DNA of 64,000 nucleotides from Myxococcota bacterium. GTDB taxonomy: Bacteria > Myxococcota > JACRCW01. This document shows, one piece after another, positions 7,496 through 59,832 of the stretch (the stretch's first letter is position 1; every line of letters starts with the position of its first letter). The stretch is from assembly GCA_040752415.1 (NCBI GenBank), contig JBFMGU010000012.1, positions 1 to 64,000 on the forward strand, written 5' to 3'. The translations under genes and the position numbers were made by a program. The notes beneath the pieces are model-generated. The model was not told the DNA's origin and ran no database searches. It worked only from the letters and a program-made list of their open reading frames with translations.

Positions 7496-7510
7496 CGGGC
7501 GGGAGCAGCC

Positions 7511-8281: not shown

Positions 8282-8302
8282 CGCTGCCCTGACGCGGGTG
8301 GT

Positions 8303-8316
8303 GTCACGTTCCTGAC
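8303..8316. promoter_or_regulatory. Putative FleQ/FlrA-type activator box
   Basis: GTCA-CGTTCC-TGAC (GTCA-N6-TGAC); near-identical copy at 16119. Confidence 0.55.
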
Positions 8317-8366
8317 CCGCCCGGTGGGTGCACGTTCCCCCCGTCGTGACGACGCCACCCGAGGGC

Positions 8367-8382
8367 CGGCACGCGCGTTGCT
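8367..8382 (+). promoter_or_regulatory. Sigma54 promoter of the fliL operon
   Basis: CGGCACGCGCGTTGCT (GG-N10-GC). Confidence 0.75.
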
Positions 8383-8394
8383 CTGGCCGGGCGC

Positions 8395-8913
8395 ATGAAC
8401 GCCACCACCGCTCCCGCCGCCAAGGAAACCACGCCGCCCGCCAGCTCCAACGGTTCGGTCCGACTGCTGGCGCTGGGCCTCGTCCTCAACACGCTGCTCC
8501 TCGTGGGACTGATGGCCCTGCAGTTCCTGCGACCACCGCCCGCCGCGCCCGCGGCCGCCGCCCCGACGGAGGAGCACGCTCCCGCCGAGCACGCCGCCGC
8601 GCCCGCCAAGCGCGGACCCAACCTGAGCCTGGGCGAGTACGTGGTGCGCCTGCGCAATCCCGAGGCGGAGCGGTATGCGCGCTTCAGCTTCGAGGTGCAG
8701 CTGGGCAGTGAGCTCGACGTGGAGCCGGTCCGCGTGCTGATTCCCCAGATCCGCGACAGCTTCATCCTGTACCTCTCGAGCCGCTCGCTGGAGCAGGTGC
8801 AGGGCATGACGCAGCTGGAGGCCACCAAGGCGGAGCTGCTCAAGCGCCTGGACGAGATCGTGCCGCCCCGCAGCGTGCGTGCGCTCTACATGACCGACTT
8901 CGTGGTGCAGTGA
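8395..8913 (+). CDS. fliL: Flagellar basal-body protein FliL
   Basis: Single TM helix; YVVRL, PQIRDSFI..L, LYMTDFVVQ terminus. Confidence 0.9.
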   Translation: MNATTAPAAKETTPPASSNGSVRLLALGLVLNTLLLVGLMALQFLRPPPAAPAAAAPTEEHAPAEHAAAPAKRGPNLSLGEYVVRLRNPEAERYARFSFEVQLGSELDVEPVRVLIPQIRDSFILYLSSRSLEQVQGMTQLEATKAELLKRLDEIVPPRSVRALYMTDFVVQ

Positions 8914-8923
8914 CGGAGCGCCC

Positions 8924-9982
8924 ATGTCGCCCACGCTCAATCCCAACGAGATCGACGCGTTGATGCAGGCCATCCGCTCCGGGCCGCAGCCCGAGCCGGA
9001 GACCGCGGAGCGCGGCAAGGTGGTGTCGTACGACCTCACCAGCCAGGACCGCATCATCCGCGGCCAGATGCCCACGCTGGATGCCATCAATGACGTCGTG
9101 GCTTCGCGCCTGGCGGTGGGCCTGCAGGGCCGTCTGCGCACGCAGGTCCGCGCCTCCGCGCAGCCCGCCTCACTGCTCAAGTTTGCCGACTTCAACGCGC
9201 TGCTCGCGCCGCCGGCCACCGTCGCGGTGCTGACGCTGGGCTCGGGGCACGGCATGGCGTTGGCGGTGCTGGACGCGAACCTGACACGTGCGCTGCTGGT
9301 GGGCGCGCTGGGCGACAAGCGGCTGCGTCCCGACGGCGCCACCCCGCCGGTGCGTCGTGAGCTGACCGCGGTGGAGAAGCAGGTGCTGCGGCGGTTGCTT
9401 ACCCTGCTCACCGACGCCATGGAGGCGGCGTGGGGACCCATCCTGGCGCTCAAGCCCGACGTGGTGCGCTTTGAGTCCGACCCCCGTCTCGCCGTGATTG
9501 CCGCGCCCAACGACGTGGCCATCCTCTCCACCCTGGAGCTGGACATCGGCGGAGCGCTCAATGGCACGCTGCAGCTGGGGCTGCCCTACGCCAGCGTCGA
9601 GGCGGTGAAGAAGCAGCTCAGCTCTCCGCCGCGCTCCGGCGCCGGGAGCAACCAGCGCTTCGTGCAGGCGCTGGCCACGGAGCTGCAGGCGGTGGAGGTG
9701 CTGCTGGTGGCGGAGCTGGGGCGCGCGCGCCTGAACGTCTCCCGCATGATGGAGCTGCGCGTTGGCGACGTGCTCACGCTGGATACCTACGAGGGTGGCA
9801 AGCTGGGCCTGCGGGTGCAGGGACGACAGAAGTTCCTGGGCGAGCCCACGGTGCAGCATGGCCGCATGGCATTTGCCATCCAGCAAGACGCGCCCACGGA
9901 CCTGCCGCGCGACGACGCTGGCACGCCGGTGGCAAACAACGTGATCACCGAGCAGACCGCACCCCGCGCGACAGCCGCATGA
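8924..9982 (+). CDS. fliM: Motor switch protein FliM
   Basis: LNPNEIDALM, YDLTSQDRIIRGQMPTL, RELTAVE, C-terminal SpoA domain. Confidence 0.92.
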   Translation: MSPTLNPNEIDALMQAIRSGPQPEPETAERGKVVSYDLTSQDRIIRGQMPTLDAINDVVASRLAVGLQGRLRTQVRASAQPASLLKFADFNALLAPPATVAVLTLGSGHGMALAVLDANLTRALLVGALGDKRLRPDGATPPVRRELTAVEKQVLRRLLTLLTDAMEAAWGPILALKPDVVRFESDPRLAVIAAPNDVAILSTLELDIGGALNGTLQLGLPYASVEAVKKQLSSPPRSGAGSNQRFVQALATELQAVEVLLVAELGRARLNVSRMMELRVGDVLTLDTYEGGKLGLRVQGRQKFLGEPTVQHGRMAFAIQQDAPTDLPRDDAGTPVANNVITEQTAPRATAA

Positions 9983-39570: not shown

Positions 39571-40689
39571 TCAGGGCATGGCGCCGGTGCCGTGCCAGTG
39601 GCTCACGCCGTTGGGCTCCTCACCCACCGGGATGGTCCGCACCACGCTGCGAGATTGCGTGTCCACCACGGAAACGCTGTTGTCATGGATGTTCGTCACG
39701 TAGGCCTTGGTCCCGTCGTCGCTGACCACCACGCCGTGCGCACCGCTGCCAACCTCGATGGTGGCCGCAACGGTGGCCTCCTCCACGTTGACCTCATAGA
39801 GGCGGTTGGAGGCCGGGCGGTCGAGCAGCAGTCCCTGGTCGCACACGTACAGCCGCGTGCTGTCCGGCGTGGGATAGAGCTGGATGGGCCCCTGCGACCC
39901 TGCCGGCAAGGCAATACGGGTCACCGCGCGCGTCGTGGTGTGGAGGCGCACCACCTCCAGGGTGTCGTAGAGCGAGACGAACACGTACCGCCCGTCCGGC
40001 GTGCACGCGGTCTGCACCGCCATGCCGCCCAGCGGCACTTCATCCACGGTGCCACCCGCGGGATCGACAATGGAGATGCTCTTGCCCGTGATGTTGGCAA
40101 CGTAGAGGAGCCCGCCACATTCGCGCATCCCGTGGGGCTGTCGGTCCGCACCCAACTCGAAACGTCGCACCACCTGGCGCGTGCCCACGTCGACCTGCAG
40201 CACCTGGTTGGCTTCGTTGGCGGTGACGTACGCATGGCGGGATGCGGAGTCGATGATCACGTGGGCCACGTGCAGCTCGCGCCCCAGGTTGACCCGACCG
40301 ACGACGGTGTCCGTGGTGGGGTCGATGATGATGGCCTGCTCGTCCATCTCCGCGGTGTGCCCATGCTGATCGGGCTCGGCGCGTGGTGGGGCCGTGACCC
40401 AGACAGAGCGGCCGTCCGGCGCGCCCTGCACGTTGTGGGGCGTGAACGCCACGCCGTTGTCCGTCAGGTCAATCACCGTCAGGACCGTTCCCGTGTGCTC
40501 GTCCAGGACGGAGATGGAGCCCTGCGCCTCATTGGCCACGTAGACCTTGGCCACATGGGTTGAACCGCCCGAGCTCGTGGAGCCGTTGCTGTTGTTTCCC
40601 GACGGGGAACCGCCGCCAAACCCTGCTCCCGCACCACAACCAGCAACCCATCCCAGGATTCCCATCGCCACCAGACCGCGTGCTTGCAT
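39571..40689 (-). CDS. YVTN/YncE beta-propeller lipoprotein
   Basis: Lipobox VAGC; repeated YV.N..S.SV.D and PHG/PHN motifs. Confidence 0.85.
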   Translation of the reverse strand: MQARGLVAMGILGWVAGCGAGAGFGGGSPSGNNSNGSTSSGGSTHVAKVYVANEAQGSISVLDEHTGTVLTVIDLTDNGVAFTPHNVQGAPDGRSVWVTAPPRAEPDQHGHTAEMDEQAIIIDPTTDTVVGRVNLGRELHVAHVIIDSASRHAYVTANEANQVLQVDVGTRQVVRRFELGADRQPHGMRECGGLLYVANITGKSISIVDPAGGTVDEVPLGGMAVQTACTPDGRYVFVSLYDTLEVVRLHTTTRAVTRIALPAGSQGPIQLYPTPDSTRLYVCDQGLLLDRPASNRLYEVNVEEATVAATIEVGSGAHGVVVSDDGTKAYVTNIHDNSVSVVDTQSRSVVRTIPVGEEPNGVSHWHGTGAMP

Positions 40690-40734
40690 CTCCTCACTCC
40701 TTCCACGGCGCCACGCCGCGTTCCGCGCGCCACC

Positions 40735-40750
40735 TGCGAACCTCGGGCCA
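40735..40750 (-). promoter_or_regulatory. Putative sigma54 promoter of the YVTN gene
   Basis: TGGCCCGAGGTTCGCA. Confidence 0.5.
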
Positions 40751-40889
40751 GAGGAGCCCCGGCACGAACGCAACGTGTGCATCCGCACGCCGGGCCGCCC
40801 GCACCGTCGCGCGAGAAACCATCACGCAATCCGCGCGCGCCTTCGCGCAATGTCGTCGCGGTTTCTCGTGCACCCCGCGCCACGACGGG

Positions 40890-40925
40890 TGGCGAGTATT
40901 CATCACTGTTGAGGACTATTCTCCG
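40890..40925. promoter_or_regulatory. Paired palindromic operator/enhancer sites
   Basis: TGGCGAGTATTCATCA and TGAGGACTATTCTCCG, each 12/16 to TGGAGAATATTCTCCA. Confidence 0.6.
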
Positions 40926-41505: not shown

Positions 41506-42882
41506 TCACGGTGCCGCAACCACAACTTCACCCATCATCCCGTTCTCGGCGTGTTGGAGGATATGACAGTGGTACATCCACCGGCCTGCCTCGCCGTCGA
41601 AAGGGATCAACAGCTGCACGGTGCGGCCCGCCGGGACATTGACGGTGTCCTTCCAGGCCCGCAGCCCGTCGACACCGCCCACCACCTGGAAACGGAAGCC
41701 GTGGAGGTGGAACGGGTGGTCCATGAAGGTGTCGTTGACCACGTCCCATTGCTGCAGCACGCCCACCCGCGCCTGCAGGGGCGTGATGTCCGGGTATACC
41801 TCGTCGTTGATGCGGAAGGTGCCGCCCATGCCGTGGCCCATGTCCTCGGTGAGCCGAAGGCGCTGCACCACGGACGGCGTACCGGGGTCCTCAACCACGT
41901 CGAGCTGCTGCGGCACCGCGGGAGGGTTCACCGGCGGAGCAAGGCTGTAGTGGACACGCATGAGAGGAAGGTCAACGCGCTCCATGTTCATGTGGCCCTG
42001 GTTGTAGGGCCGCGCCACCAGCTCGAACTGCTGCCCGGGCAGCGCATCCGCGGCCACCACCACGTCCAGCCTCTCCCCAGGGACCAGCAGCATCTCCTCC
42101 CGCTCCTGCGGCGTCTCCAGGAAACCAGAGTCCAATCCCAGCACGGTGAAGGGATGCTCCGGCAGCGTGAGGCGGAAATAGCGTGCATTCGCAACGTTGA
42201 TGATGCGCCAACGCTCGCGCTCGCCGGCACGCACCTCCGCAATGGGACGCGCCCTGCCGTTGACCAGCATGAGGTTCCCCACCTGCTCGCCCATGCCCAT
42301 TCCACCCATGCCCATCCCAAGGCCCGACGAGGTGCGGATGTCGTCGAGCATGAGGATGCGTTCCCGGGTCAGTGTGGGCTCCTGGGGCCCGCGCACGACG
42401 ATGGGGCCGTACAGGCCGCGTTCCACCTGCACATCGGAGCGCACGTGCGGGTGGTACCAATACGTCCCCGCATCCTTCACCGTGAACCGGTAATCAAACG
42501 TGCCTCCCGGTGGAACAGGCGTCTGCATCGTCGGCACGCCATCCATCTCGGCGGAGACGCGCAATCCGTGCCAATGGATCGTGGTTTCTTCCGGCAGGTT
42601 GTTCCGGAAGTGGACCACCACCTCGTCCCCGACGTTGGCTTCCAGGGCTGGGCCGGGCACCGTGCCGTTGTACGTCCAGGCTTCCGTCGGCTGACCGGGA
42701 AGGTATTCCAGCGTGGCAACCCGCGCTTCCAGCTCCACCTCGACGACGCCGGGTTCCGGATTCAAGTCGTCCAACCGCTTCACGTCGAAGTCACCCGGAG
42801 AAGGCGGCGGTGTGAACACGCTTCCGCCCATCCCGCACGCTGCTCCCAGCAACCCGAGACCCAACACAACAACGTGGCGCAT
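41506..42882 (-). CDS. Multicopper oxidase lipoprotein
   Basis: HWHG, WYHPH, HPFHLHG, HCHILQHAENGMM; lipobox GAAC. Confidence 0.95.
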   Translation of the reverse strand: MRHVVVLGLGLLGAACGMGGSVFTPPPSPGDFDVKRLDDLNPEPGVVEVELEARVATLEYLPGQPTEAWTYNGTVPGPALEANVGDEVVVHFRNNLPEETTIHWHGLRVSAEMDGVPTMQTPVPPGGTFDYRFTVKDAGTYWYHPHVRSDVQVERGLYGPIVVRGPQEPTLTRERILMLDDIRTSSGLGMGMGGMGMGEQVGNLMLVNGRARPIAEVRAGERERWRIINVANARYFRLTLPEHPFTVLGLDSGFLETPQEREEMLLVPGERLDVVVAADALPGQQFELVARPYNQGHMNMERVDLPLMRVHYSLAPPVNPPAVPQQLDVVEDPGTPSVVQRLRLTEDMGHGMGGTFRINDEVYPDITPLQARVGVLQQWDVVNDTFMDHPFHLHGFRFQVVGGVDGLRAWKDTVNVPAGRTVQLLIPFDGEAGRWMYHCHILQHAENGMMGEVVVAAP

Positions 42883-42907
42883 GGTTTTCTCCTCCGCCGC
42901 ACGGCGC

Positions 42908-42923
42908 AGCAACGCGCATGCCA
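42908..42923 (-). promoter_or_regulatory. Sigma54 promoter of the multicopper oxidase
   Basis: TGGCATGCGCGTTGCT. Confidence 0.7.
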
Positions 42924-42932
42924 CGGTGGGCC

Positions 42933-45302
42933 TCATGACAACCGCGTCCGTTGCAGGCGCAGCGCATTTCCCACGACGGAGACGGAGCTGAGGCTCATGG
43001 CCGCGGCGGCGATCATGGGACTGAGCAACAACCCGAAGAAGGGATAGAGCACGCCCGCCGCCACCGGGACGCCCAGCGTGTTGTAGATGAACGCGAGGAA
43101 GAGGTTCTCGCGAATGTTGCGCATGGTGGCGCGGCTGAGCCGACGGGCGCGCACGATCCCCAGCAGGTCGCCCTTCACCAACGTCACCCCGGCGCTTTCC
43201 ATGGCCACGTCCGTCCCGGTACCCATGGCAATTCCCACGTCGGCGGCGGCGAGCGCGGGAGCGTCGTTGATGCCATCGCCGGCCATGGCCACCACGCGGC
43301 CCTCCGCCCGGAGCTGGCGGATGACCTCACCTTTCCCGTCGGGAAGGACCTCCGCCTCCACACGCTCGATCTCCAGGCGGGCCGCCACCGCTCGCGCGGT
43401 GCGTGTGTTGTCGCCGGTCAGCATCACCACCTCGATGCCCTCGCGCTCCAGCGCCTGGATGGCTTCCGGCGTCGTCGCCTTGATCGGGTCGGCCACGCCC
43501 ACCAGCCCGGCGGGCTGCCCATCCACCGCCACCAGCATCACGGTCTGGCCTTCACCACGGAGCGTGTCCGCGCGCGCCTCCAGGTCGGTGAACGGAATGC
43601 CCAGCTCCTCCATCAGGCGTGCATTCCCCAGGGCCACCTGGCGCCCGTCGACTTCACCGGTCACGCCCCTGCCCGTGAGCGAGCGGAACGCGCGCGTCTC
43701 CGTGACCGCCACCCCACGCTCCCTGGCCCCGCCAACAATCGCACTGGCCAGCGGGTGCTCACTGCCGCGCTCCAGGCTGGCCACCAGGCGCAACAGCGTC
43801 CGCTCGTCCAGGTTGCCGGCGGGCACCACCGAGGTCAGCGCCGGCCGCCCCTCCGTGAGCGTCCCGGTCTTGTCGATGACCAGCGTGTCGACGCGCTCCA
43901 TCACCTCCAGCGCCTCGGCATTCTTGATGAGGACACCGGCGGTGGCTCCGCGACCGGTTCCCACCATGATGCTCAACGGCGTGGCGAGGCCCAGCGCACA
44001 CGGACACGCGATCACCAGCACCGCCACGGCATTGACGATGGCGTACGCGAGCGCGGGCTCCGGCCCCAGCAGCCACCACACCCCGAACGTCACGACGGAA
44101 ACCAGGACCACGGCGGGCACGAACCAGGACGAGACCACGTCGGCGAGGCGCTGGATGGGCGCGCGGCTGCGTTGCGCTTCTCCCACCATCTTCACGATCT
44201 GCGCCAGCAGCGTGTCCGCGCCAACCCGCTCCGCGAGCATGACCAACGAGCCGGTGCCATTGATGGTGGCGCCAGTGACCTTGTCGCCGGGTCCCTTCTC
44301 GACGGGGACGGGCTCGCCGGTGACCATGGACTCATCCACGCTGGAGGTGCCTTCCAACACCACGCCGTCGACCGGCACCTTCTCGCCCGGTCGCACGCGC
44401 AGGCGGTGGCCCACGGCCACGTCGGCGAGAGGGAGGTCTCCCTCGGTGCCGTCGTCACGGAGCACGCGCGCGGTCTTGGGGACCATGCCCAGCAACGCCT
44501 TGATGGCGCCGCTGGTCCGACTGCGCGCACGCAGCTCCAGGATCTGCCCGAGAAGCACGAGGATGGTGATGACCGCCGCGGCCTCGAAGTAGACATCGAC
44601 CTCGCCGTGGCGACGCGCGGATGGCGGGATGATGGAGGGGAGGAGCGTGGCCACCAGGCTGTACAGGTACGCCACGCCGGTGCCCATCCCGATCAACGTG
44701 AACATGTTGAGGCTGCGGTTCACGACGGAGAACCAGGCACGGTGGAAGAACGGCCAGCCGCTCCAGAGCACCACCGGCGTGGCCAGGACAAGCTGCACCC
44801 AGTTCCGCGCGCCCGCGGGCAACCGGGGCGCACGCGGGAACATCTCCGCCATGGCCATGAGCACCAGCGGCACGGTCAACGCCACCCCGACCTTGAAGCG
44901 CCGCGTGAAGTCCACCAGCTCCGGGCTGGGACCCTCCTCCGTCGCCATGCGCGGCTCCAGGGCCATGCCGCATTTCGGACAGGTTCCCGGTCCCGGCCGC
45001 ACCACCTCCGGGTGCATGGGACAGGTGTACTCCGCCGACGTGACGGGAGGAGGAACCTCCGCCGTCGTCGACGGTGGCGTGGGCTCAGCGGGACCGTCGT
45101 ACCTCGCCGGGTCCCGAAGGTATTCCTGCGCGCAGTGCTCGGAGCAGAAGAATCGCTCCCCACCTCCCGCCGCAGCACCCGCGACCTTCACCGCCGCGGC
45201 GGGATCCACGTCCATGCCGCACACGGGGTCACGTTCGGTCCTCGGTGGCGTCGGAGCGCGCCGCTGCGGGTGTTGATGACGATGATGTGGCGAAGGTTCC
45301 AT
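42933..45302 (-). CDS. copA: Cu(I)/Ag(I)-transporting P1B ATPase with YHS and CPMHP domains
   Basis: DPVCGM...[42 protein letters not shown] and MSLSS. Confidence 0.95.
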
Positions 45303-45385
45303 GGATGCTGCTCCTGGAGTGGAGGTCACGTCCTGGGCCGCGCTTGCGTGCAAGCAGGTGCGGTGACCTGCCTGGGTTTCCCGAC

Positions 45386-45544
45386 TCAAGACCCTGGGCG
45401 CCACCCTCCCTCGCTCCGCTTGTCCACGTGGCGACAAGAGTGCGGGCTCACCCATTCGATCACGGCGGTCTTGTCCGCGCCCGGGCCGCCGGTTGGCACG
45501 ACGCGATTGAGCGGATGCGCCCGGTCACCACGACGGGAAACCAT
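45386..45544 (-). pseudogene. Remnant of a P-loop (AAA_28-like) ATPase
   Basis: [17 protein letters not shown] resembles V.TGGPGAGKT..E with a damaged Walker A; terminates after ~50 aa. Confidence 0.5.
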
Positions 45545-45556
45545 GGCGCCTGTTGC

Positions 45557-45572
45557 TGCATTGCACATGCCA
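45557..45572 (-). promoter_or_regulatory. Sigma54 promoter upstream of the ATPase remnant and copA
   Basis: TGGCATGTGCAATGCA. Confidence 0.65.
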
Positions 45573-45607
45573 CGGAAGTGGCGGTGGAACCGGACCCGAA
45601 GCGGGGG

Positions 45608-47011
45608 CTATTCCACGCGAAGCTCACCCATCATCCCGGCTTCCGCGTGCTCGAGGATGTGGCAGTGGTACATCCACGACCCTGGCTCATCCAGGCGGGA
45701 CACGAGGTGGAGCGTGCTCTCGGCGGGGACGATGATGGTGTCCTTGTTGGCGCGCCGCTCCGGCGGGATGGCCACGCCGTTGGAGGCGAGAACCTGGAAG
45801 AAGAACCCGTGCAGGTGGAACGGATGGTCCATCTCACTGGTGTTGCGCACATCAAACGCCGCCACCGTGCCGTTGACGACGGAGATGGCGGGGACGTCCG
45901 GGTAGGTCTCGCCATTGACGGTGAAGATGGTCTGACCGTCGCGGATGCCCTCGTCGAGCGTGATGGTGAACGCGTTCTCTCCATCCGGCAGCAGCTCGAC
46001 GGTGTTCTGCACCGCGGGCAGCACGCGCCCGGACAACGCGGTCCCGTCCTGCACCTGGAATCTCGCCACCTCCAGCGCGCCGTGGGCCGACGTGCCGTGT
46101 CCGCGCTCATAGGGATCACTCACCACGGGCAACTCCATGCCCACCGTCGTCGGCGCAACGAACACGAGGTCGGCGCGCTCCCCGGGGCTGAGCAGCACGT
46201 GCTCGGCATCCAGGGACTCGGGCAACAGGCCGCCGTCGCCACCAATCACGCGCCAGGAGAGGCCATCCAGCCGCAGGTTGAAGAACCTTCCATTGGCCAC
46301 GTTGACCACGCGCAGCCGCACCAGCGCGCCCGGGGTCAACGCAATGAGTGGTGAAACCACGCCATTGACCAGCAGCGTGTTCCCTTCCCGGCCCAGCATC
46401 AGGCCATTGTCGTCGAGGTATTCGTTCAGCGTTCCGTCGGGGCGCAGGCGGATGTCATCCAGCATCAGGATGAGCTCCTGGTCCACCGTCGGCTCGTCGG
46501 GGCCGCGGACGCGGATGGCTCCGTACAGTCCCTTCTGCACCTGGATGTCCGAGCGCATGTGCGGGTGGTACCAGAACAGCCCCGCGTCCCTCGCCACGAA
46601 GTCGTACGTGAAGGTTCCCCCGGACGGGATGGGGCTCTGCATCGCCAGGGTGCCATCCATCGTCGCGGGGACGCGGACGCCGTGCCAGTGGATGGTGGTC
46701 TCCTCCGGCAGGTGGTTGGTGAAGTGGATGATCAGCCGGTCGCCCACGGCGACGTCGAGGAGCGGCCCCGGGACCGAGCCGTTGTAGGCCCAGACGTTGG
46801 TGGCCGGCGCATCTCCGTACTGCTTGGTGGCCTCCCCAGCCTCGAGCTCGATCTCCAGGATCCTGGGATCGGCGTTGCGGTCGGGGGCGGAGGGAAGCGT
46901 CATGTCGACGGGCTGGCGTGGCGGCGGTGGCGGCGGAGGACCATTCGTCCCCGTCGTGCACGCGCCAGGTCCCAGCATCAGCAGCAGCAACCAGCGGACG
47001 CGCATGGACAT
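45608..47011 (-). CDS. Second multicopper oxidase lipoprotein
   Basis: HWHG, WYHPH, HPFHLHG, HCHILEHAEAGMM; lipobox PGAC. Confidence 0.95.
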   Translation of the reverse strand: MSMRVRWLLLLMLGPGACTTGTNGPPPPPPPRQPVDMTLPSAPDRNADPRILEIELEAGEATKQYGDAPATNVWAYNGSVPGPLLDVAVGDRLIIHFTNHLPEETTIHWHGVRVPATMDGTLAMQSPIPSGGTFTYDFVARDAGLFWYHPHMRSDIQVQKGLYGAIRVRGPDEPTVDQELILMLDDIRLRPDGTLNEYLDDNGLMLGREGNTLLVNGVVSPLIALTPGALVRLRVVNVANGRFFNLRLDGLSWRVIGGDGGLLPESLDAEHVLLSPGERADLVFVAPTTVGMELPVVSDPYERGHGTSAHGALEVARFQVQDGTALSGRVLPAVQNTVELLPDGENAFTITLDEGIRDGQTIFTVNGETYPDVPAISVVNGTVAAFDVRNTSEMDHPFHLHGFFFQVLASNGVAIPPERRANKDTIIVPAESTLHLVSRLDEPGSWMYHCHILEHAEAGMMGELRVE

Positions 47012-47012
47012 C

Positions 47013-47402
47013 TCACCGCACCGGGTTGGCGGACATCTCGTTGGAGTAGGGCGAGTAGTCGCTGCCCATCTTGCAGCGCAGACGATAGGTGTAGGTGGTG
47101 TCCGCGGTGGCCGTGCCGTCCATCTTGTTGTCGACGTCACCCGGTACGCTGAAGGCGGCCGTGAAGTCGGCGCCGTCCTGCTTGCGCTCGCCCTCGACGG
47201 CGTCACAGCCGGTGGTGTTGTTGGTCCACTGCACGTGGAGCGCGCCGCCCATCTTGGCAATGCTGGTGATGGTGGGTGCGTCCATCTGGTGCCCGCCGCC
47301 GCTGGTGTTGGTGTGCGAAGAGCCGTCCGAGCCCTCCATCCCGCATGCGGCCAACGCCGCGGTCAGCACGACTGCAATTCCGACGAGAGTGGACTTCTTC
47401 AT
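47013..47402 (-). CDS. Small lipoprotein with FN3-like fold
   Basis: MKK...LAAC lipobox; W...., D.TA...TTYTYRL..., S.YSNE FN3-like pattern; RBS AGGAG. Confidence 0.75.
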   Translation of the reverse strand: MKKSTLVGIAVVLTAALAACGMEGSDGSSHTNTSGGGHQMDAPTITSIAKMGGALHVQWTNNTTGCDAVEGERKQDGADFTAAFSVPGDVDNKMDGTATADTTYTYRLRCKMGSDYSPYSNEMSANPVR

Positions 47403-47523
47403 GGCAGGTTCTCCTGAGTCAGGGGACGCCCGCCGGGAAGCGCCCATCCCCGCCAGGCTTCGACGCTGGCGCGGCCGGGTCACCTTGGCAGGCCTCCGCA
47501 TTACGCGCAGACGCAGCGCGAAA

Positions 47524-47539
47524 AGCAAGCGCGGTGCCA
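47524..47539 (-). promoter_or_regulatory. Sigma54 promoter of the lipoprotein-MCO-copA unit
   Basis: TGGCACCGCGCTTGCT, a consensus match. Confidence 0.8.
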
Positions 47540-47590: not shown

Positions 47591-47606
47591 TGAAGACTAT
47601 TCTCTA
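47591..47606. promoter_or_regulatory. Palindromic operator/enhancer site
   Basis: TGAAGACTATTCTCTA, 13/16 to the consensus palindrome. Confidence 0.6.
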
Positions 47607-52346: not shown

Positions 52347-52554
52347 AGCAATGGCCACGCCACGTCGCGGACGGCCGGAGGCAGGACCGCACTCGCCCTT
52401 TGGACCCGTGCTGACGTGAGGAGCGTCGAGAATATTACACAGCGCATTCTGGAGAATACTCTCCACGCCGGGACCGCACCGTGGCGGCAGCTCGAGGCGT
52501 GATCCGGTCACGGAAGGGAGGCTTAGGTGAAAGCCCAGTGGCATGCATCTGGCA
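52347..52554. promoter_or_regulatory. Divergent sigma54 promoters (52347-52362 minus; 52539-52554 plus) flanking paired palindromes (52426-52441, 52450-52465)
   Basis: TGGCGTGGCCATTGCT; TGGCATGCATCTGGCA; TCGAGAATATTACACA; TGGAGAATACTCTCCA. Confidence 0.7.
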
Positions 52555-52599
52555 CACGCGCAGGCGGCACGCCCCACCTTGAGCACGTCGCCTTCGACC

Positions 52600-53832
52600 A
52601 TGTTCGCGCCCACCGAGGCCACCGCCGTGGCGCTTGAGCTCCCGTTCTCCGCGGGCGGACGGCCGCCCCTCGTCGGCAACCGCCTGTGGATTGCCGCGCT
52701 GTTGATGGCCCTGGCCATCACCGTGGCGCACTACGGCACGTCCATGGAGCTGATCACGCTGCACAACATCCTGCGGCGCCTCTACTACCTGCCCATTGTC
52801 ATGGCGGCGGTGGGTTACGGGGTGAAGGGAGGCCTCCTCGCCGCCGCGGGATGTGCCCTGGGCTATGTGCCGCACGCGTTCCTGGTGGATCACCACATGG
52901 TCGCGTCGCTGCCCCACGAGGGGCACAACGTGGGTCCACACGCCGGTCACGTGATGGGCGTGCCGCTCTCGGGAGATCCCTCTCCCACCGCGGAGAAGGT
53001 GCTGGAGATCGTGCTCTTCCACGGCGTGGGCTGGGTGACCGGTGTGCTCTCGGAGCGGTGGGCCCGGGCGCTCGAGGAGTCGCAGGCCCTGACCCGTCGA
53101 CTGCACCTCGCGCTGCAGGAGCGCGACCGCATGCGCGAACAGCTGGTGCGGAGCGAGAAGCTTGGGGCGCTGGGGCAACTTAGCGCCGGGCTGGCCCACG
53201 AGATTCGCAATCCGCTCAGCGCCATTCGCGGCAGCGCGGAGGTGTTGGCGGAGGATTTCCGTGCCGGGCATCCCAAGGCGCAGCTCGCCGGCATCCTGCT
53301 CAAGGAGCTCACGCGACTGGACCGCGTGCTCACGGACTTCCTCCAGTTCGCGCGACCACCCGCTCCCAACACCCACCCCTTTGCCCTGGACAAGCTCATC
53401 GACGAGGTGGCGACGATGACCGTGGCCCGTCGTCAAGAGGCTCACATCTCGTACCGCGCGGAGATTGCCACCGGTCTGCCACCGTGCCTGGCGGACCCGG
53501 ATCACATCCGGCAGATCCTGTTGAACCTGGTGCTCAACGCCATCCAGGCCATGCCCCACGGCGGGACCCTCACCTTCCGCTGCCATCTGCTCCAGCCGTC
53601 GGATGCGCCCGCGCTGCGGTTGGAGGTGCAGGACACCGGCTCTGGCATCCCCACCGGTGAGCTGCACCGGATCTTCGAGCCGTACTTCACCACGCGCGCC
53701 GAGGGGACCGGTCTGGGGCTCTCCATCAGCCACGCGCTCGCGGAAGCCAACGGCGCCGTGCTCGACGTGCGCAGCACCGAGGGAAGAGGCTCCACGTTCG
53801 GCCTCACGCTGCGTTGCCAGGAGGCGGCATGA
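52600..53832 (+). CDS. Membrane sensor histidine kinase with His/Met-rich loop
   Basis: TM segments; DHHMVASLPHEGHNVGPHAGHVMG loop; AHEIRNPL; GTGLGL. Confidence 0.9.
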   Translation: MFAPTEATAVALELPFSAGGRPPLVGNRLWIAALLMALAITVAHYGTSMELITLHNILRRLYYLPIVMAAVGYGVKGGLLAAAGCALGYVPHAFLVDHHMVASLPHEGHNVGPHAGHVMGVPLSGDPSPTAEKVLEIVLFHGVGWVTGVLSERWARALEESQALTRRLHLALQERDRMREQLVRSEKLGALGQLSAGLAHEIRNPLSAIRGSAEVLAEDFRAGHPKAQLAGILLKELTRLDRVLTDFLQFARPPAPNTHPFALDKLIDEVATMTVARRQEAHISYRAEIATGLPPCLADPDHIRQILLNLVLNAIQAMPHGGTLTFRCHLLQPSDAPALRLEVQDTGSGIPTGELHRIFEPYFTTRAEGTGLGLSISHALAEANGAVLDVRSTEGRGSTFGLTLRCQEAA

Positions 53833-55193
53833 CCCGGGAGACCGTGCTGCTCGTCGAGGATGATGCCAGCCTGCGCGAGGTGATGGCCTTCCAGCTGCAG
53901 TCGGAGGGGTACCGCGTCATCAAGTCCGCCAGCGGCGCGGAGGCCCTCACCCACCTTGAGCATGAAGCTCCGCCCGCCGTGGTGATCACGGACCTCAAGA
54001 TGCCGCACATGGATGGCTTCCAGGTGCTGGCGGAGGTCCGCAAGCGTGCGCCGCTGACGCCGGTGTTGGTGGTCACGGCGTTCGGCAACGTGGAGACGGC
54101 GGTGCAGGCCATGCGCGGCGGCGCCTTCGACTTCGTGAGCAAGCCATTCCACAAGGACCAGTTCCTGCTCACGGTCCAGAAGGCGGTGGCCCAGTGGCGT
54201 CTCCTCGACGAGAACGAACGCCTCAAGGAGGACAGCCGCCGCGAGGGGGAATGCGTGGCGGTCTCCCCGGCCATGCGCGAGGTGCTGGCGCAGGCGCGTC
54301 AGGTGGCCAACACCACGGCCACCGTGTTGCTGCTGGGCGAAAGCGGGGCCGGCAAGGAGGTGCTGGCGCGGGAGATCCATCGCGCGAGCGACCGGCGGGA
54401 CAAGCCGTTCGTGGCCATCAATTGCGCGGCCATTCCCAAGGACCTGCTGGAGGCGGAGCTGTTCGGCTTTGCGCGGGGAGCGTTCACCGGCGCGCACAAG
54501 GAGCGCGTGGGCAAGTTCCAGGCGGCGGACGGAGGCACGCTGTTTCTCGACGAGATCGGCGACCTTGACGATGCGCTGCAGGCCAAGATCCTGCGCGTGC
54601 TGGAGAACCGCACGGTCGACGTGATTGGCGGAGGGACCGTGCCCGTCAACGTGCGCATCATCGCCGCCACGCACCGGGACCTGGCCGCGGAGGTGGCTGC
54701 CAAGCGGTTCCGCCAGGATCTCTTCTTCCGCCTGGCGGTCATTCCCCTGCGCATTCCGCCGCTGCGCTCGCGCCCGGAGGATGCCAGCGTCCTGTTTGCC
54801 CGCTTCATCCGCCGCTTCTCCGGGGATGCCAACATCACCATGAGCGACGCACTCTTGCGTGCCGTCGAGCGTCGCGCGTGGCCGGGGAACGTGCGTGAGC
54901 TGCGCAACGTGGCCGAGCGCATGGTGGCGCTGCGCAAGTCCGACTCGCTCGACGTTGGCGACCTGCCGCCCGAGGACGCTCCCGGTGCGGCCGCCGCCGC
55001 GCAGACGTGGAACCTCCGTCCCGGCAACATCGAGCTGCCCCCGGAGGGCGTGGGCCTCGAGGAGCTGGAGCGCGCGGTGATCGAGTATGCCCTGGAGAAG
55101 AACGCGGGAAACGTCTCCGCCGCCGCGCGCTTCCTGAAGGTGCCGCGACACATCCTGGTCTATCGAATCGAGAAGTTCGGCATCAGCCCCTAA
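53829..55193 (+). CDS. Sigma54-dependent NtrC-family response regulator
   Basis: REC domain; GESGAGKE; GAFTGA; LFLDEIG; WPGNVREL; Fis-type HTH. Confidence 0.95.
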   Translation: MTRETVLLVEDDASLREVMAFQLQSEGYRVIKSASGAEALTHLEHEAPPAVVITDLKMPHMDGFQVLAEVRKRAPLTPVLVVTAFGNVETAVQAMRGGAFDFVSKPFHKDQFLLTVQKAVAQWRLLDENERLKEDSRREGECVAVSPAMREVLAQARQVANTTATVLLLGESGAGKEVLAREIHRASDRRDKPFVAINCAAIPKDLLEAELFGFARGAFTGAHKERVGKFQAADGGTLFLDEIGDLDDALQAKILRVLENRTVDVIGGGTVPVNVRIIAATHRDLAAEVAAKRFRQDLFFRLAVIPLRIPPLRSRPEDASVLFARFIRRFSGDANITMSDALLRAVERRAWPGNVRELRNVAERMVALRKSDSLDVGDLPPEDAPGAAAAAQTWNLRPGNIELPPEGVGLEELERAVIEYALEKNAGNVSAAARFLKVPRHILVYRIEKFGISP

Positions 55194-55226: not shown

Positions 55227-55274
55227 TGCAGACTATTCTTCGTTTTGGCCACCGGCGGTGACGAATATTCTCCA
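55227..55274. promoter_or_regulatory. Paired palindromic operator/enhancer sites
   Basis: TGCAGACTATTCTTCG (55227) and TGACGAATATTCTCCA (55259). Confidence 0.65.
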
Positions 55275-56699
55275 TTGCGACTCCACCACGTGGTGACCCG
55301 CGCAGACCCTACGCCTTCCACGGTGCGGAGCATCCAACATCGTGGAGGGCGTTCGGCGACGCTGCGCGACGAAGCTTGAACAATGGCACCGCGGCCGGTA
55401 CAGGACGGCCGCCAAGGAGGCTTTCCATGCACAAGGTCCTTTCTCGCAAGCTGAAGAACGTGAAGGTGGAGGCGCCCAAGCCGAAGCTCGGCGTGCGCTG
55501 CTGCGGCAACGTGAACTGCTGTGGCAACATCCGCTGCTGCGGCAACTGAGTCCGTCGCGCATCACGCCAACGCCCCGTCGCTCCACGCGGATCGACGGGG
55601 CGTTGTGTTTCGACGGATGGGAGGACGAGCCTCCGGAACACCGTTGTGATCCCGGACTGGAATCCCGGTGCTGGCCAGCGGCGGGCCGACGCCCAGACGT
55701 CTTGGTGCGCAGCTCCAGACGTCTTGTTGCGCACACCCAGACGCCTTGGTGCGCGTGTTCAGACGCGTTGTGGGGGGCCGGCGTCGTCGTGGCGCGGCCC
55801 GGGGTGTCCTCCCACGTCCCGGTCTCCGTCTCTCCCGCGCGAGGACGCGGTTGCGCCTCCTGCGCGGGCCGCGCGGGGCCAGGCCACCACTGCGCTGCAG
55901 GCGTCAACAAACCGGCCACTGGAGGCAGCGGCTCGTCCAGGGGCGCCACCGGGATGTCCGACCAGCGCTCCCAGCCCAGCATCCCTGCTTCAGTCTCCCG
56001 CTTGGCCTCGCGAGCGAACCTCTCCACCTTGGCAAGCCCCTGCGGGAGCGTCACGCGCGTCACCAGGCGGGAGAGGGCGGGGGGAATGCGTCCGCCTGGG
56101 GCCAGCTCTCCCCGGAAGACAAGGATGCTCCTACCTCCTCCGTCGGTGGCCAAGAGCGTCATCTCCCCCCGATCCACGGGAACACGCACCACTCCGGGTC
56201 GCCGCGGCGGTCCGGCGGCTTCATCCAGATCCCACGTCAAGCGAAGGGCTCCCGTGCCGTCGGGATTGAGGTCCTGGTGGAGCGTTCGCCGGATGGCGTA
56301 GTCACGCGGGGCGGTGAGCGGGACCTGGACCACTCCGTAGACCCACAGCTCACTCCCCTCGCGGCGGAAGACGCGGCAGTAGCGCATCTCGGGGTAGTGC
56401 GGCTTGTGCTCGCAGAAGTGGAAGAGCACGTGCCGGACGTAGCGCGGCTCCACCTCGAGGATGACGGCGGCGTCAAAGGTGTACGCACCGCGGTGGTCCG
56501 GCGGCGCAACCCGCAGGTGGTGGACCTCCGCGGCGAGCGCCACGGCCGGCGCAACGAGGAGCACGCTGATCAAACCGGTGCGTCCGCGTGGCACGAGCGC
56601 CTCCTGACCCGCATCCCCCGCCGCGTCGCCTTTCGGCCCACGCGGTATACGTCCACGCCGTGCCCCCATCAGGCCGCCCCCCAGCGCGAGCGGGGACAC
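55233..56699 (-). CDS. START/SRPBCC-domain protein; true boundaries uncertain, C-terminal half probably read-through
   Basis: Y....VP...PRDY, W......P...GVVRV....G..., PGG.IP..L START-like pattern over ~55990-56530. Confidence 0.55.
   Translation of the reverse strand: MSPLALGGGLMGARRGRIPRGPKGDAAGDAGQEALVPRGRTGLISVLLVAPAVALAAEVHHLRVAPPDHRGAYTFDAAVILEVEPRYVRHVLFHFCEHKPHYPEMRYCRVFRREGSELWVYGVVQVPLTAPRDYAIRRTLHQDLNPDGTGALRLTWDLDEAAGPPRRPGVVRVPVDRGEMTLLATDGGGRSILVFRGELAPGGRIPPALSRLVTRVTLPQGLAKVERFAREAKRETEAGMLGWERWSDIPVAPLDEPLPPVAGLLTPAAQWWPGPARPAQEAQPRPRAGETETGTWEDTPGRATTTPAPHNASEHAHQGVWVCATRRLELRTKTSGRRPAAGQHRDSSPGSQRCSGGSSSHPSKHNAPSIRVERRGVGVMRDGLSCRSSGCCHSSSRCRSSARRASAWAPPPSRSSACEKGPCAWKASLAAVLYRPRCHCSSFVAQRRRTPSTMLDAPHRGRRRVCAGHHVVESQWRIFVTAGGQNEE
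55427..55549 (+). CDS. 40-aa Cys-rich peptide MHKVLSRKLKNVKVEAPKPKLGVRCCGNVNCCGNIRCCGN
   Basis: AAGGAGG 6 nt before ATG; mostly G/C third codon positions; three xxCCGN repeats; followed by a terminator hairpin; absent from the ORF track. Confidence 0.85.
   Translation: MHKVLSRKLKNVKVEAPKPKLGVRCCGNVNCCGNIRCCGN
55568..55610 (+). terminator. Intrinsic terminator-like hairpin after the Cys peptide
   Basis: 13-bp perfect stem CAACGCCCCGTCG/CGACGGGGCGTTG followed by TGTTT. Confidence 0.75.
55693..55770. repeat. 22-bp tandem repeat, ~3.5 copies
   Basis: CCAGACG(T/C)CTTG(G/T)TGCGC units at 55693, 55715, 55737 and partial 55759. Confidence 0.8.
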
Positions 56700-56807: not shown

Positions 56808-57155
56808 ATGCTGCATGCACGACTCATCCTTGTACTCGGACTGGCGGCCTCGTCGGTGGCGTGGGCCCAGGAGCAACCCCAGCAGCAGGCGCCCTGCCCA
56901 TGCCCCATGATGGGCGGTGACAACACGATGAGCTCCATGATGCAGGCCTGCATGGACCACAACCGGATGACCACCCAGGCCATCGACGAGATGACAGCCA
57001 CCATGGCGCAGGCCCGGAAGTCGGGCGACGCTGCCAAGATGCGCAGCGCGCTCGAGTCCGCGGAGCGAACCCTCCGCGACATGCGTCAGCACACCGGAGC
57101 CTGCATGAGAGCCATGGAGCAGATGCCTGCGCCGGGGAGCGGGGCGCCGCGTTGA
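56808..57155 (+). CDS. Secreted Met-rich helical protein (possible copper binder)
   Basis: RBS GGAGG; signal peptide AWA-Q; CPCPMM, MMQACMDH, HTGACM. Confidence 0.7.
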   Translation: MLHARLILVLGLAASSVAWAQEQPQQQAPCPCPMMGGDNTMSSMMQACMDHNRMTTQAIDEMTATMAQARKSGDAAKMRSALESAERTLRDMRQHTGACMRAMEQMPAPGSGAPR

Positions 57156-58728: not shown

Positions 58729-59012
58729 CTGAAACCTCCCTGTCCGTTACGAGTTCCCCCTGGCACCTGCAGCGGAGCTACCCGTTCCCGGACGCGGCAG
58801 CAGCCACCCCATGTCACGCGCTCCATGCCTGCGCGGTCACGCCCTGGAGTGCTCTGCCAGACGGTCGGGGCTGATCGGAACGGGCACCCTGGTTAGGGTC
58901 CCGGCGTCCACTTGTGAGCGTTCCGGCCAGCTCTCGCGCACCGGATTCGGAGCCGTGCGCACCAGCTGATGCTGCGTCGCGCAGCACGAGGCGAGTTGGC
59001 GCACGTGTCAAT

Positions 59013-59028
59013 TGGCGCGTGGGTTGCG
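59013..59028 (+). promoter_or_regulatory. Putative sigma54 promoter
   Basis: TGGCGCGTGGGTTGCG. Confidence 0.55.
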
Positions 59029-59061
59029 GCCTTGGCGAGCAGGCCAGGAAAGGAGTGTCCG

Positions 59062-59832
59062 ATGTCACCCAGACTTCCATCCGCCGTGATGGCGAGCTTG
59101 CTGACTGCCGCGTGCGCGGCAACGGCGCCGGGAACCAGGCCGCACGAGATGAGCGCCGCCGAGCATGAGCGCGAAGCGGAACAACATGCCCGCACGGCCG
59201 AGCAGCACGCCGCCCAGTACGATCCGACCGCAACGGCAGGAAGCGGCGAATGCGTGACGTCGTCCGGTCGGCGCCTTGACGTGGACGAGGGCATTTGCTG
59301 GTCCGCAAGACAGAATCCCACCTCGGGGCACCTGCGTGCGGCCAAGGAGCACCGGCGCATCGCCGAGCAGCACCGGATGGCGTCGCAGGTACTCCGGGAT
59401 GCGGAAGCGCAGGCGTGCGCGGGCATCGCGCCGGATGACCGCGACATGAGCCCGTTCGACAACACCGAGGACATCGTGAGCGTGGCCAAGCTCACCGAGA
59501 CCCGGTTGCGCGGCGAGAATCCCTACGAGGAGGTGGTTGGCGCCGTGGTGGTGTTCCGCGCTGTTCGCGGCCTCACCGCCGAGTGGCTGCAGCGGGTCGT
59601 CGACTGTCACCTCGCCCGGAACGCAGCCCTGGGACACGTGGCGCCGGACATGCCGGACTGTCCCCTGGTACCCCGCGGCGTGGAGGCCAGGGTGTGGTCG
59701 ACGGGGAACGGCTTCGCGGTGGGCCTCCGTTCAGATGACCCCAAGGTCGTGCGCGAGATTCTCGACCGGACCCAGCGACTCCGCGGGCGCGCGGTGAGCA
59801 CGACCTCTCGCGGGCGGCGGGGGCCGGCATGA
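59062..59832 (+). CDS. His/Cys-containing lipoprotein of unknown function
   Basis: RBS AAGGAG; lipobox TAAC; PHEMSAAEHE..A..H..A..H helices; six Cys including the lipobox Cys. Confidence 0.7.
   Translation: MSPRLPSAVMASLLTAACAATAPGTRPHEMSAAEHEREAEQHARTAEQHAAQYDPTATAGSGECVTSSGRRLDVDEGICWSARQNPTSGHLRAAKEHRRIAEQHRMASQVLRDAEAQACAGIAPDDRDMSPFDNTEDIVSVAKLTETRLRGENPYEEVVGAVVVFRAVRGLTAEWLQRVVDCHLARNAALGHVAPDMPDCPLVPRGVEARVWSTGNGFAVGLRSDDPKVVREILDRTQRLRGRAVSTTSRGRRGPA

Follow-up and report, generated by a model that had tools for sequence, protein, structure and literature searches.

The stretch of DNA analyzed here, called the window, is 64,000 nucleotides long and belongs to contig C24 of a Myxococcota genome (G000; assembly of 11.0 Mb in 520 contigs, 96.8% complete). 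At 55427..55549 on its plus strand lies a gene for a 40-residue peptide, directly behind the genes of a sigma54-dependent two-component system. The gene is real and under selection, and its product belongs to a peptide family encoded mostly beside one clade of GMC-family flavoenzymes. We lean, with moderate confidence, toward reading it as the precursor of a copper-induced peptide made by the ribosome and modified post-translationally (RiPP), which such a flavoenzyme would mature in trans. The features of the locus are as follows.

52454..52465, minus strand: operator motif TGGAGAGTATTC, intergenic, before the kinase gene (genome-wide motif scan)
52543..53832, plus strand: sensor histidine kinase (HisKA and HATPase_c), membrane domain with a His/Met-rich loop (Pfam)
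53814..55193, plus strand: NtrC-type sigma54-dependent response regulator (REC, AAA+ and Fis helix-turn-helix domains; Pfam)
55227..55274, no strand assigned: operator pair TGCAGACTATTC (55227-55238) and TGACGAATATTCTCCA, activator-type, upstream of the peptide gene (motif counts)
55384..55399, plus strand: candidate sigma54 promoter TGGCACCGCGGCCGGT (score 15/21, 43 nt 5' of the ATG)
55414..55420, plus strand: Shine-Dalgarno sequence AAGGAGG, 6 nt 5' of the ATG (kept in the paralog)
55427..55549, plus strand: putative precursor-peptide gene, 40 aa, ATG at 55427 and TGA at 55547-55549 (third-position GC, paralog, family alignment)
Within 55427..55549, plus strand: putative leader of about residues 1-22, then core VRCCGN-VNCCGN-IRCCGN (alignment, predicted enzyme interface)
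55569..55612, plus strand: terminator-like hairpin, 12-bp GC-rich stem, then GTGTTTCG (folding, paralog conservation)

A small gene present in two copies

The product of 55427..55549, MHKVLSRKLKNVKVEAPKPKLGVRCCGNVNCCGNIRCCGN, is short and basic, with a Lys-rich N-terminal half, six Cys among its 40 residues, and no transmembrane segment. The GC content at third codon positions (GC3) of its open reading frame (ORF) is 0.90, against a GC content of 0.69 for the window. It has no match in Pfam (E ≤0.01) or NCBIfam (E ≤0.1), metallothionein families included. Downstream, the arms AACGCCCCGTCG and CGACGGGGCGTT at 55569-55604 form the stem of the hairpin, and the segment 55550-55620 has a folding energy of -44.3 kcal/mol (z = -5.4), with none of 200 shuffled sequences as stable.

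A paralog lies in the same genome on contig C334 (C334:79195-79317), and a loose regular expression for leader and dyads retrieved only these two ORFs from the whole of G000. The copies differ at 9 of 123 nucleotides, seven of the changes being synonymous and two conservative (H2N and V4I), and the peptides are 95% identical. Their flanks, from 21 to 320 nt upstream and from 71 to 270 nt downstream, are at background, with identities of 0.60 to 0.64 (random 100-mers give 0.60 ± 0.03). The only flanking parts kept are 20 nt with the ribosome-binding site (0.90) and the terminator (0.74), whose stem persists in the paralog with a G-U change. Because the changes between the copies are biased toward synonymous ones while the flanks are unrelated, 55427..55549 is a real, selected gene. 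An open frame of 488 aa on the minus strand (55233-56699) spans it. The part of that frame from about 55650 to 56696 resembles a real gene, with no Pfam match, and its overlap with the peptide gene is probably a mere open frame in GC-rich DNA.

An earlier note on this DNA had claimed a complete small gene absent from the track of ORFs. The gene is indeed real and stands alone, with its own ribosome-binding site, its terminator, and a second copy under selection; AAGGAGG, the ORF, and the upstream sites all lie where the note had placed them, and the gene does directly follow a sigma54 NtrC-type kinase and regulator pair. Of the 13-bp hairpin and T-tract that the note described, the hairpin stands, with a 12-bp stem, but the T-run behind it (GTGTTTCG) is weak. 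Vicinal Cys pairs with a period of six residues are correct for the window peptide, whereas in the family alignment the first Cys of a pair may be His.

A peptide family beside a clade of flavoenzymes

The peptide and a five-sequence profile were searched in 401 genomes of the phylum, 185,579 species genomes, and 5.8 billion proteins, and further members were found by inspecting the DNA beside homologs of the GMC enzyme. GTDB holds 2 genomes for the order of G000 and 4 for its class. The phylum scan gave matches in 22 of the 401 genomes at E ≤0.1, and inspection left real family ORFs in G000, G001, and G039 only. Among the species genomes, 6 of 56 stretches found with the peptide were confirmed, 4 of the 6 being artifacts; loci L034 to L037 (Steroidobacteraceae, Ruminococcus, Ruaniaceae, and Saccharothrix) were rejected as out-of-frame or repeat artifacts inside long frames. 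The word-indexed search of the 5.8 billion proteins returned four proteins among 49 candidates. The family is rare and comprises 13 distinct peptides, all from metagenome-assembled genomes (MAGs) of uncultured Myxococcota ('Deltaproteobacteria/Myxococcales/Polyangia').

G000 C24: the window sequence, MHKVLSRKLKNVKVEAPKPKLGVRCCGNVNCCGNIRCCGN
G000 C334: the window sequence with H2N and V4I
G039: MKLLQTKKLKNVKVEKKSRKGEVRCCGVIRCCGVIRCCGVIRQ
G001 C163: MNSVLNHKPKNVQVQQPTPAPQGTGCCKISCCK
G001 C146: MKILKRPLSNVTVEPAQPTPAGGKTGCCKISCCK
P0004: MNSVLNHKPKNVHVEQPAPAPSGEGTRCCKISCCK
L042: MKLLKSTKCKNVEVAPLRRAARPGHCRIQARVVRCCKIHCCK
L044: MKLLVRKQTRNVTLTQAPARTSVRSHCNRHCHAPRHCNRA
L045: MKMLETKTRLRIRVEKGTLRAKAARHRGGRGHCGGPKHCGGPSHCGGIRHCGG
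L048: MKILSKKSARKVVVSSIAARLGARHRGHVRHCGVLRHCGAVRHCGQLG
L049: MKALLAKKPRNVKLERSAKATGRVRCCGQLRHCGAPPTIRHCGAPPTR
G037: MKKLFPKPVTTPVEAPRPVPESTCCKISCCK
G085: MKLLQKVRLKNIKVMTALNKSLKVRHCQIRCCK

Conserved homologs, on which the earlier note had made its case depend, therefore exist as the paralog and as relatives in 10 further MAGs, which have retained leader and dyads and whose frames end shortly behind the final dyad. Across the 11 aligned members the leader follows the pattern M-K-x-L..K-N-V-x-V-E, with conservation in the region of M1, L5, K8, N11, V12, V14, and E15. The C-terminal half carries two to four dyads, each with an invariant Cys in second place and either Cys or His in first. Spacing between dyads is mostly six residues, and both their number and their spacing vary. 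The dyad is followed by Gly in the window type and by Lys, Asn, His, or Gln in others. A leader conserved across genera in front of a variable core is the pattern expected of RiPP precursors.

Ten of the 13 peptides are encoded within 1.5 kb of a flavin adenine dinucleotide (FAD) oxidoreductase of the GMC family, 440 to 480 aa long and from one distinct clade (37 to 63% internal identity by all-against-all BLAST). In L042, G039, L044, L045, and L048 the peptide gene directly precedes the enzyme gene and shares its strand, and an MFS or EamA transporter adjoins the peptide/GMC locus in G039, G001 C163, L045, L046, and L052 (Pfam). The single GMC-clade gene of G000, encoding 447 aa, is on contig C334 (77395-78735) beside the paralog. 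The window copy and the G001 C146 copy adjoin a sigma54 two-component system and have no neighboring GMC enzyme. Both G000 and G001, which represent the two genera of their GTDB family, hold one copy at the regulator and one at the enzyme.

Seen from the side of the enzyme, all 11 clade loci from the scan of species genomes carry an adjacent small Cys-rich ORF. In the phylum sample, 19 genomes have a clade match at E ≤1e-50; among the six best-scoring loci there, four have an adjacent family peptide, G001:C43 has none, and G267 is ambiguous. The G037 locus also has an adjacent family peptide. At G267 (L196; G267:C939), the GMC frame is open for about 40 codons upstream and reads MKGLLHRKLSGLRGRTRC..., which is leader-like and, by its sequence, could be a fused or frameshifted precursor. 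A short C-terminal likeness noticed by eye in G001:C43 was not confirmed. Two Polyangiales loci (L046:1151-1231 and L052:3477-3557, both minus strand) encode a different 26-aa peptide, MKFRIRIRETQCKFCGGFCGGPDCRC and a variant of it, directly after an MFS gene and divergent from the GMC-clade gene; a Cu P1B-ATPase adjoins in L046.

Two loci from Alphaproteobacteria/Rhizobiaceae MAGs (L047:1057-6341 and L051:409-5485) have a precursor, a full-length LanB dehydratase, and a GMC-clade enzyme in a row. The precursor ends in (A)GCCSGCHCSMA, and the enzyme is 44% identical to that of G000. Judged by gene content, these LanB-coupled loci are an unambiguous RiPP setting. The literature searches made gave no description of a class-I-lanthipeptide-type cluster with a GMC partner, and no paper among those searched describes this peptide family or enzyme clade.

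Complex prediction suggests that the enzyme recognizes the leader. The window peptide with the GMC enzyme of G000 scored 0.73 (runs of 0.71, 0.73, and 0.74), and the best of three controls scored 0.00. The docking mark was attained by 116 of 157 solved complexes and by 2 of 215 mismatched pairs, counts that calibrate the score only roughly because our own clade and peptide alignments and the FAD ligand were used. The runs share at least 62% of their contacts, with a partner confidence (pLDDT) of at least 59. The confident interface involves peptide residues 1-7 and 9-22, which is the leader only, and enzyme residues 350-377 together with 127-129, 228-231, 254-255, 261-263, and 286-290. Residues 347-369 of the enzyme hold many invariant or near-invariant columns and are among the most conserved segments of the clade.

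A shared operator and the copper operon

A 12-nt operator motif, TGNNGAMTATTC (TGnnGAMTATTC), occurs five times in the window against an expectation of 0.01, and none of 100 shuffles reached five. A looser form has 11 matches in the 11-Mb genome, seven of them within 14.4 kb (C24:40890-55274). Each of the four matches outside C24 stands alone, that on C140 falling within a called long ORF, and they were treated as chance. The seven C24 sites stand in four places: before the peptide gene, the kinase gene, a beta-propeller gene (39574-40788, minus strand), and a copper operon. In the pair before the peptide gene, the second site reads TGACGAATATTC/TGGAGAATATTC at 55259-55274 and has the palindromic core GAATATTC. 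The features at the other end of this region are as follows.

40890..40921, plus strand: operator pair TGGCGAGTATTC and TGAGGACTATTC (sites at 40890 and 40910), before the beta-propeller gene (motif scans)
41509..47260, minus strand: copper operon (Pfam)
41509-42936, minus strand: second multicopper oxidase (Pfam)
42936-45455, minus strand: Cu P1B-ATPase with YHS and HMBD domains (Pfam)
45611-47260, minus strand: multicopper oxidase (Pfam)
47524..47539, minus strand: near-consensus sigma54 promoter TGGCACCGCGCTTGCT (score 20/21)
47591..47602, plus strand: operator motif TGAAGACTATTC, upstream of the copper operon promoter (motif scans)

The operator at 47591 is 52 nt upstream of TGGCACCGCGCTTGCT, whose first 10 nt equal those of the candidate peptide promoter TGGCACCGCGGCCGGT. 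Since one operator is common to the peptide gene, the kinase gene, and the copper operon, the link to copper is supported within the window itself. This agrees with the earlier note, which had placed the peptide behind a putative copper-sensing system: the same rare operator stands before two multicopper oxidases and a Cu P1B-ATPase. The paired palindromic sites that the note had pointed out at 55227 and 55259 likewise exceed chance.

The same elements recur around relatives. Paired GACTATTC-type sites lie 140 to 180 nt upstream of family peptides in L006 and L044, in the latter within an intergenic region common to a divergent Cu-ATPase, and the sigma54 sites of relatives are better at similar distances (19/21 in L006 and L045). 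Orthologous or related sigma54 systems stand beside family peptides in three other MAGs. In G001 C146, an orthologous kinase (51%) and regulator (67%) adjoin the peptide in convergent orientation; a related regulator (43%) lies near the peptide-GMC pair of L045; and L048, with a related regulator (41%), has the order kinase, regulator, peptide, GMC enzyme. Copper genes are also neighbors, namely a multicopper oxidase and a BIM1-like/LPMO_10 protein in G039, Cu P1B-ATPases with YHS and HMBD domains in L044 and L046, and, upstream of the GMC gene on C334 of G000, a CusB-type fusion protein, an outer-membrane factor, and a large RND ORF (Cus-type efflux).

Several neighboring features were seen in passing. 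A sigma54-like site, TGGCATGCATCTGGCA (52538-52553, 19/21), overlaps the initial ATG of the kinase ORF, so that the protein may begin at a Met further in and may control its own expression by way of the operator at 52454. Between promoter TGGCACCGCGCTTGCT and the first oxidase, a small His-containing lipoprotein-like ORF (MKKSTLVGIAVVLTAALAACGMEGSDGSSHTNTSGGGHQMD...; 47260-47524, minus strand) recalls the His-rich first gene of the Myxococcus xanthus curA operon. Just past the peptide gene lies a secreted Met/Cys-rich protein of 115 aa (56808-57152, plus strand), and further on a lipoprotein-like ORF of 287 aa (orf287; 58969-59829, plus strand), whose homolog next to the Cu-ATPase at the L046 peptide-GMC locus is 46% identical. 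When the unknown genes of the window flanks were compared with the relatives' loci by tblastn (E ≤1e-4), the sole match was that of orf287 in L046, and none was obtained with the 232-aa membrane protein, orf87, the 349-aa minus-strand ORF, the Met-rich protein, DUF1622, the beta-propeller, or orf163. Downstream of the paralog on C334 are a very His-rich ORF with runs of H and D (L032:10381-10848) and a TonB-dependent receptor whose N terminus is fused to a TonB_C domain (L032:11422-14112).

Readings of the gene and comparison with known systems

Flavoenzymes of the GMC family have a precedent in RiPP biosynthesis. Wiederkehr, Paoli, Richter et al. (Nature 2026, PMC13083261) describe ThaO and TheO, GMC enzymes that turn the Cys of a Gly-Cys(-Gly) motif into thiazole (-20 Da) with no ATP. 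According to the same paper, TheO is active without the lanthionine synthetase, and its reaction is impaired by G-1A and G+2A, Gly being needed on both sides of the Cys. PMC13638132 adds that thioaldehydes can be formed from thiols by GMC oxidases and that those of Cys can go on to thiazoles or the 5-thio-oxazoles of copper-binding RiPPs. Our literature searches on GMC enzymes in RiPPs with copper or a leader, and on copper-binding RiPPs of myxobacteria, gave only the first of these papers and the mechanistic comment in the second.

Leader-plus-core anatomy, synteny with enzyme and exporter, LanB-coupled cousins, and leader-only docking together make it somewhat probable that the window gene encodes the precursor of a copper-induced RiPP matured by a GMC flavoenzyme, and maturation would be in trans, since the sole GMC-clade enzyme of the genome lies beside the paralog on C334. 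We speculate that the kinase senses copper and that binding of the NtrC-type regulator to the GACTATTC/GAATATTC pair activates the sigma54 promoter located 43 nt upstream of the ATG. Residues 1-22, the leader, would then dock on the C334 flavoenzyme, which would oxidize one Cys per dyad. By the precedent of ThaO and TheO the thiol could pass through a thioaldehyde to a thiazole, a thio-oxazole or another oxidation product being equally open. The neighboring Cys or His side chain would stay free and give repeated two-ligand Cu(I)-binding units, and export of the product would, in relatives, fall to an MFS or EamA transporter. Because the first residue of the dyad alternates between Cys and His, both copper ligands, this pattern together with the operator regulon and the copper neighbors points to copper as the purpose.

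More tentatively, and with rather less confidence than we place in the precursor itself, these loci may represent a new class of copper-inducible metallophore-type RiPP. In such a class, a GMC enzyme would make a heterocycle and leave a free thiol or imidazole in each dyad without ATP, iron, or radical SAM chemistry, creating two to four bidentate Cu(I) sites. The product would be exported by MFS or EamA transporters within a sigma54 copper-defense regulon, and the extra precursor copies at the regulator would provide rapid supply.

Several observations weigh against the precursor reading. No maturase gene adjoins the window copy, the nearest GMC enzyme being on another contig, so that maturation in trans has to be assumed; an enzyme encoded with the precursor is true of the family (10 of 13) and of the C334 paralog and false in the window itself. 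No family peptide was found near the GMC-clade genes of G001:C43, G026, G262, and G390 (2 loci), nor within 1.5 kb of 10 phylum loci with matches at E 1e-69 to 1e-79. The docking model gives no confident placement of the core relative to FAD. In all-against-all BLAST with the clade, TheO scores 89 bits and ordinary sugar-dehydrogenase-type GMCs score 81 to 87, while scores within the clade are 266 to 384; TheO being no nearer than ordinary GMCs, the thiazole chemistry is not transferable by orthology. Nor does the site match, since TheO acts on Gly-Cys-Gly and the site here is (C/H)-C-(G/K/N/H/Q). As to the promoter, the earlier note had found no clean sigma54 -24/-12 motif. This was mistaken for the -24 half, a perfect TGGCAC at 55384-55389, and right for the -12 half, which is non-consensus (GG, not GC). 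TGGCAC-N7-GS was rejected as a sigma54 marker, with 17 matches in the window against 15.5 expected, and the sigma54 promoter of the peptide is accordingly a candidate by position and score.

The earlier note had offered, as one of two options, a RiPP precursor whose maturase lies elsewhere. That option fits best, but the type of enzyme it had in mind (MNIO, radical SAM, or YcaO) gives way to the GMC-family FAD oxidoreductase at C334. YcaO (PF02624) has no match in G000 at its 96.8% completeness and was dropped as maturase. The single MNIO gene (PF05114; C98:7593-8375) was dropped too, having an adjacent substrate of its own, and no PF05114 gene appeared among the Pfam-scanned neighbors of family loci. 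The likeness to the methanobactin precursor MbnA which the note had drawn goes no further than a leader followed by a Cys core, the MNIO route not being supported. The C98 locus (7243-9103) comprises the MNIO gene, a downstream partner-like ORF, and a preceding 71-aa ORF with a signal-peptide-like start, a Lys/Glu-rich tail, and three EKSCGG repeats. We take it to resemble a copper RiPP cluster of the HvfA/oxazolin or bufferin type, and G000 may thus carry two different copper-peptide systems.

The main competitor is an unmodified, metallothionein-like Cu(I) buffer or chaperone of the cytoplasm, whose CC/HC dyads would bind the metal directly while flavoenzyme and transporters were merely co-regulated copper-stress genes. 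It would suit a peptide gene of the copper regulon whose copies in the window and at G001:C146 adjoin the regulator and no enzyme, and Cys/His interchange at the first dyad position is what one expects of a ligand. It also stays live because several clade enzymes have no peptide nearby. We nevertheless hold it less likely. A simple thiolate cluster gives no role to the Lys-rich N-terminal half of 22 residues, which is conserved across genera from M1 to V14/E15, and contact with the flavoenzyme is predicted for this half and not for the Cys core (score 0.73, best control 0.00). Same-strand placement directly before the enzyme gene in five loci, the partnership of the same enzyme clade with LanB, and the want of any Pfam or NCBIfam match argue in the same direction, as does the Cys content of six in 40 residues, classical metallothioneins being richer.

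It is quite improbable that the peptide modulates the two-component system next to it by feedback, much as other small proteins adjust sensor kinases, its Cys dyads serving as sensors of copper or redox state. The chain is short and basic, and its adjacency to the orthologous kinase and regulator is kept in two genera despite a changed gene orientation, but most family members adjoin flavoenzyme and exporter with no regulator nearby, the peptide has no transmembrane segment, and the docking prediction favors the enzyme. Least probable is a non-functional stretch, whether an ORF open by chance or an 18-nt unit repeated in tandem within GC-rich DNA. The frame is indeed very short, many frames stay open where GC is high, and out-of-frame CC-repeat artifacts do exist elsewhere (L034 to L037). 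Against this stand the seven synonymous and two conservative changes between copies with unrelated flanks, the gene's own ribosome-binding site and terminator, its GC3, and the relatives in 10 further MAGs.

If the precursor reading is true, copper-binding peptides would be reached by a flavin-based route as well as by the iron-dependent MNIO routes (methanobactins, bufferins, and oxazolins), and a compact two-gene system, a 40-aa substrate and a 447-aa enzyme, would be at hand for ATP-free Cys modification. The finding would also show how small unannotated genes are hidden in the metal regulons of uncultured Myxococcota.

Metallothioneins resemble the peptide in small size, vicinal Cys pairs, plausible thiolate binding of Cu(I), and metal-responsive control. 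Unlike them, the present peptide has a conserved non-Cys leader half, a modest Cys content, His in place of some Cys, tight synteny of its family with a flavoenzyme, and no Pfam or NCBIfam match. In the copper-binding RiPPs made by MNIO enzymes, which include methanobactins, bufferins, and HvfA/oxazolins, Cys is oxidized to heterocycle-plus-sulfur copper ligands. The present family shares with these a short ribosomal peptide, repeated short Cys motifs as in HvfA, and a link to copper stress, and by analogy its Cys residues would also become copper-ligand heterocycles. It differs in having no adjacent MNIO or partner protein and no Sec signal, and its candidate enzyme is a flavoprotein.

The regulatory setting parallels, by analogy, that of the curA operon of M. 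xanthus, a copper-induced operon under the sigma54 two-component system CorSR with several sigma54 promoters, as described in PMC3707914. Like curA with its His-rich lipoprotein, multicopper oxidase, and Cu P1B-ATPase, the window combines these same parts with a sigma54 system, a likeness in the layout of parts. Unlike CorS, the window kinase has no HAMP domain or periplasmic sensor and carries a membrane domain with a His/Met-rich loop. The regulators of the window lie outside the oxidase operon, and curA, in the description of PMC3707914, has no small Cys peptide or GMC enzyme.

The nearest chemical precedent is that of ThaA/ThaO and TheA/TheO; it was only in 2026, with these two lanthipeptide-linked enzymes, that GMC flavoenzymes came into RiPP biosynthesis (PMC13083261). 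For comparison, the TheO sequence was read from its contig, where a motif scan located it; its start agrees with the supplement of PMC13083261. The G000 enzyme aligns with TheO from end to end (25% identity, E 4e-23), and the best solved relatives of its clade are the catalytic subunits of FAD-glucose and fructose dehydrogenases. On sequence, the kinship with TheO is at the level of a superfamily branch, both belonging to the same sugar-dehydrogenase-like part of the GMC family. Common to both systems are a GMC-family FAD enzyme encoded with a short precursor, a Cys-rich C-terminal core, and the lack of a YcaO or ATP-dependent enzyme, and some members of the present clade likewise go with a lanthipeptide dehydratase. 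In contrast, the present clade is distinct and about 100 residues shorter; its partner leader (M-K-x-L..K-N-V-x-V-E) is unrelated and not of the mersacidin type, and there is no LanM; the core has two to four repeated (C/H)C dyads where ThaA and TheA have a single G-C-G site; and the setting is a copper and sigma54 regulon where theirs is a lanthipeptide cluster. A second, separate GMC clade is thus indicated, with a distinct leader, a repeat-dyad core, and a place in copper homeostasis, and what would be new here is GMC-dependent RiPP chemistry in that combination.

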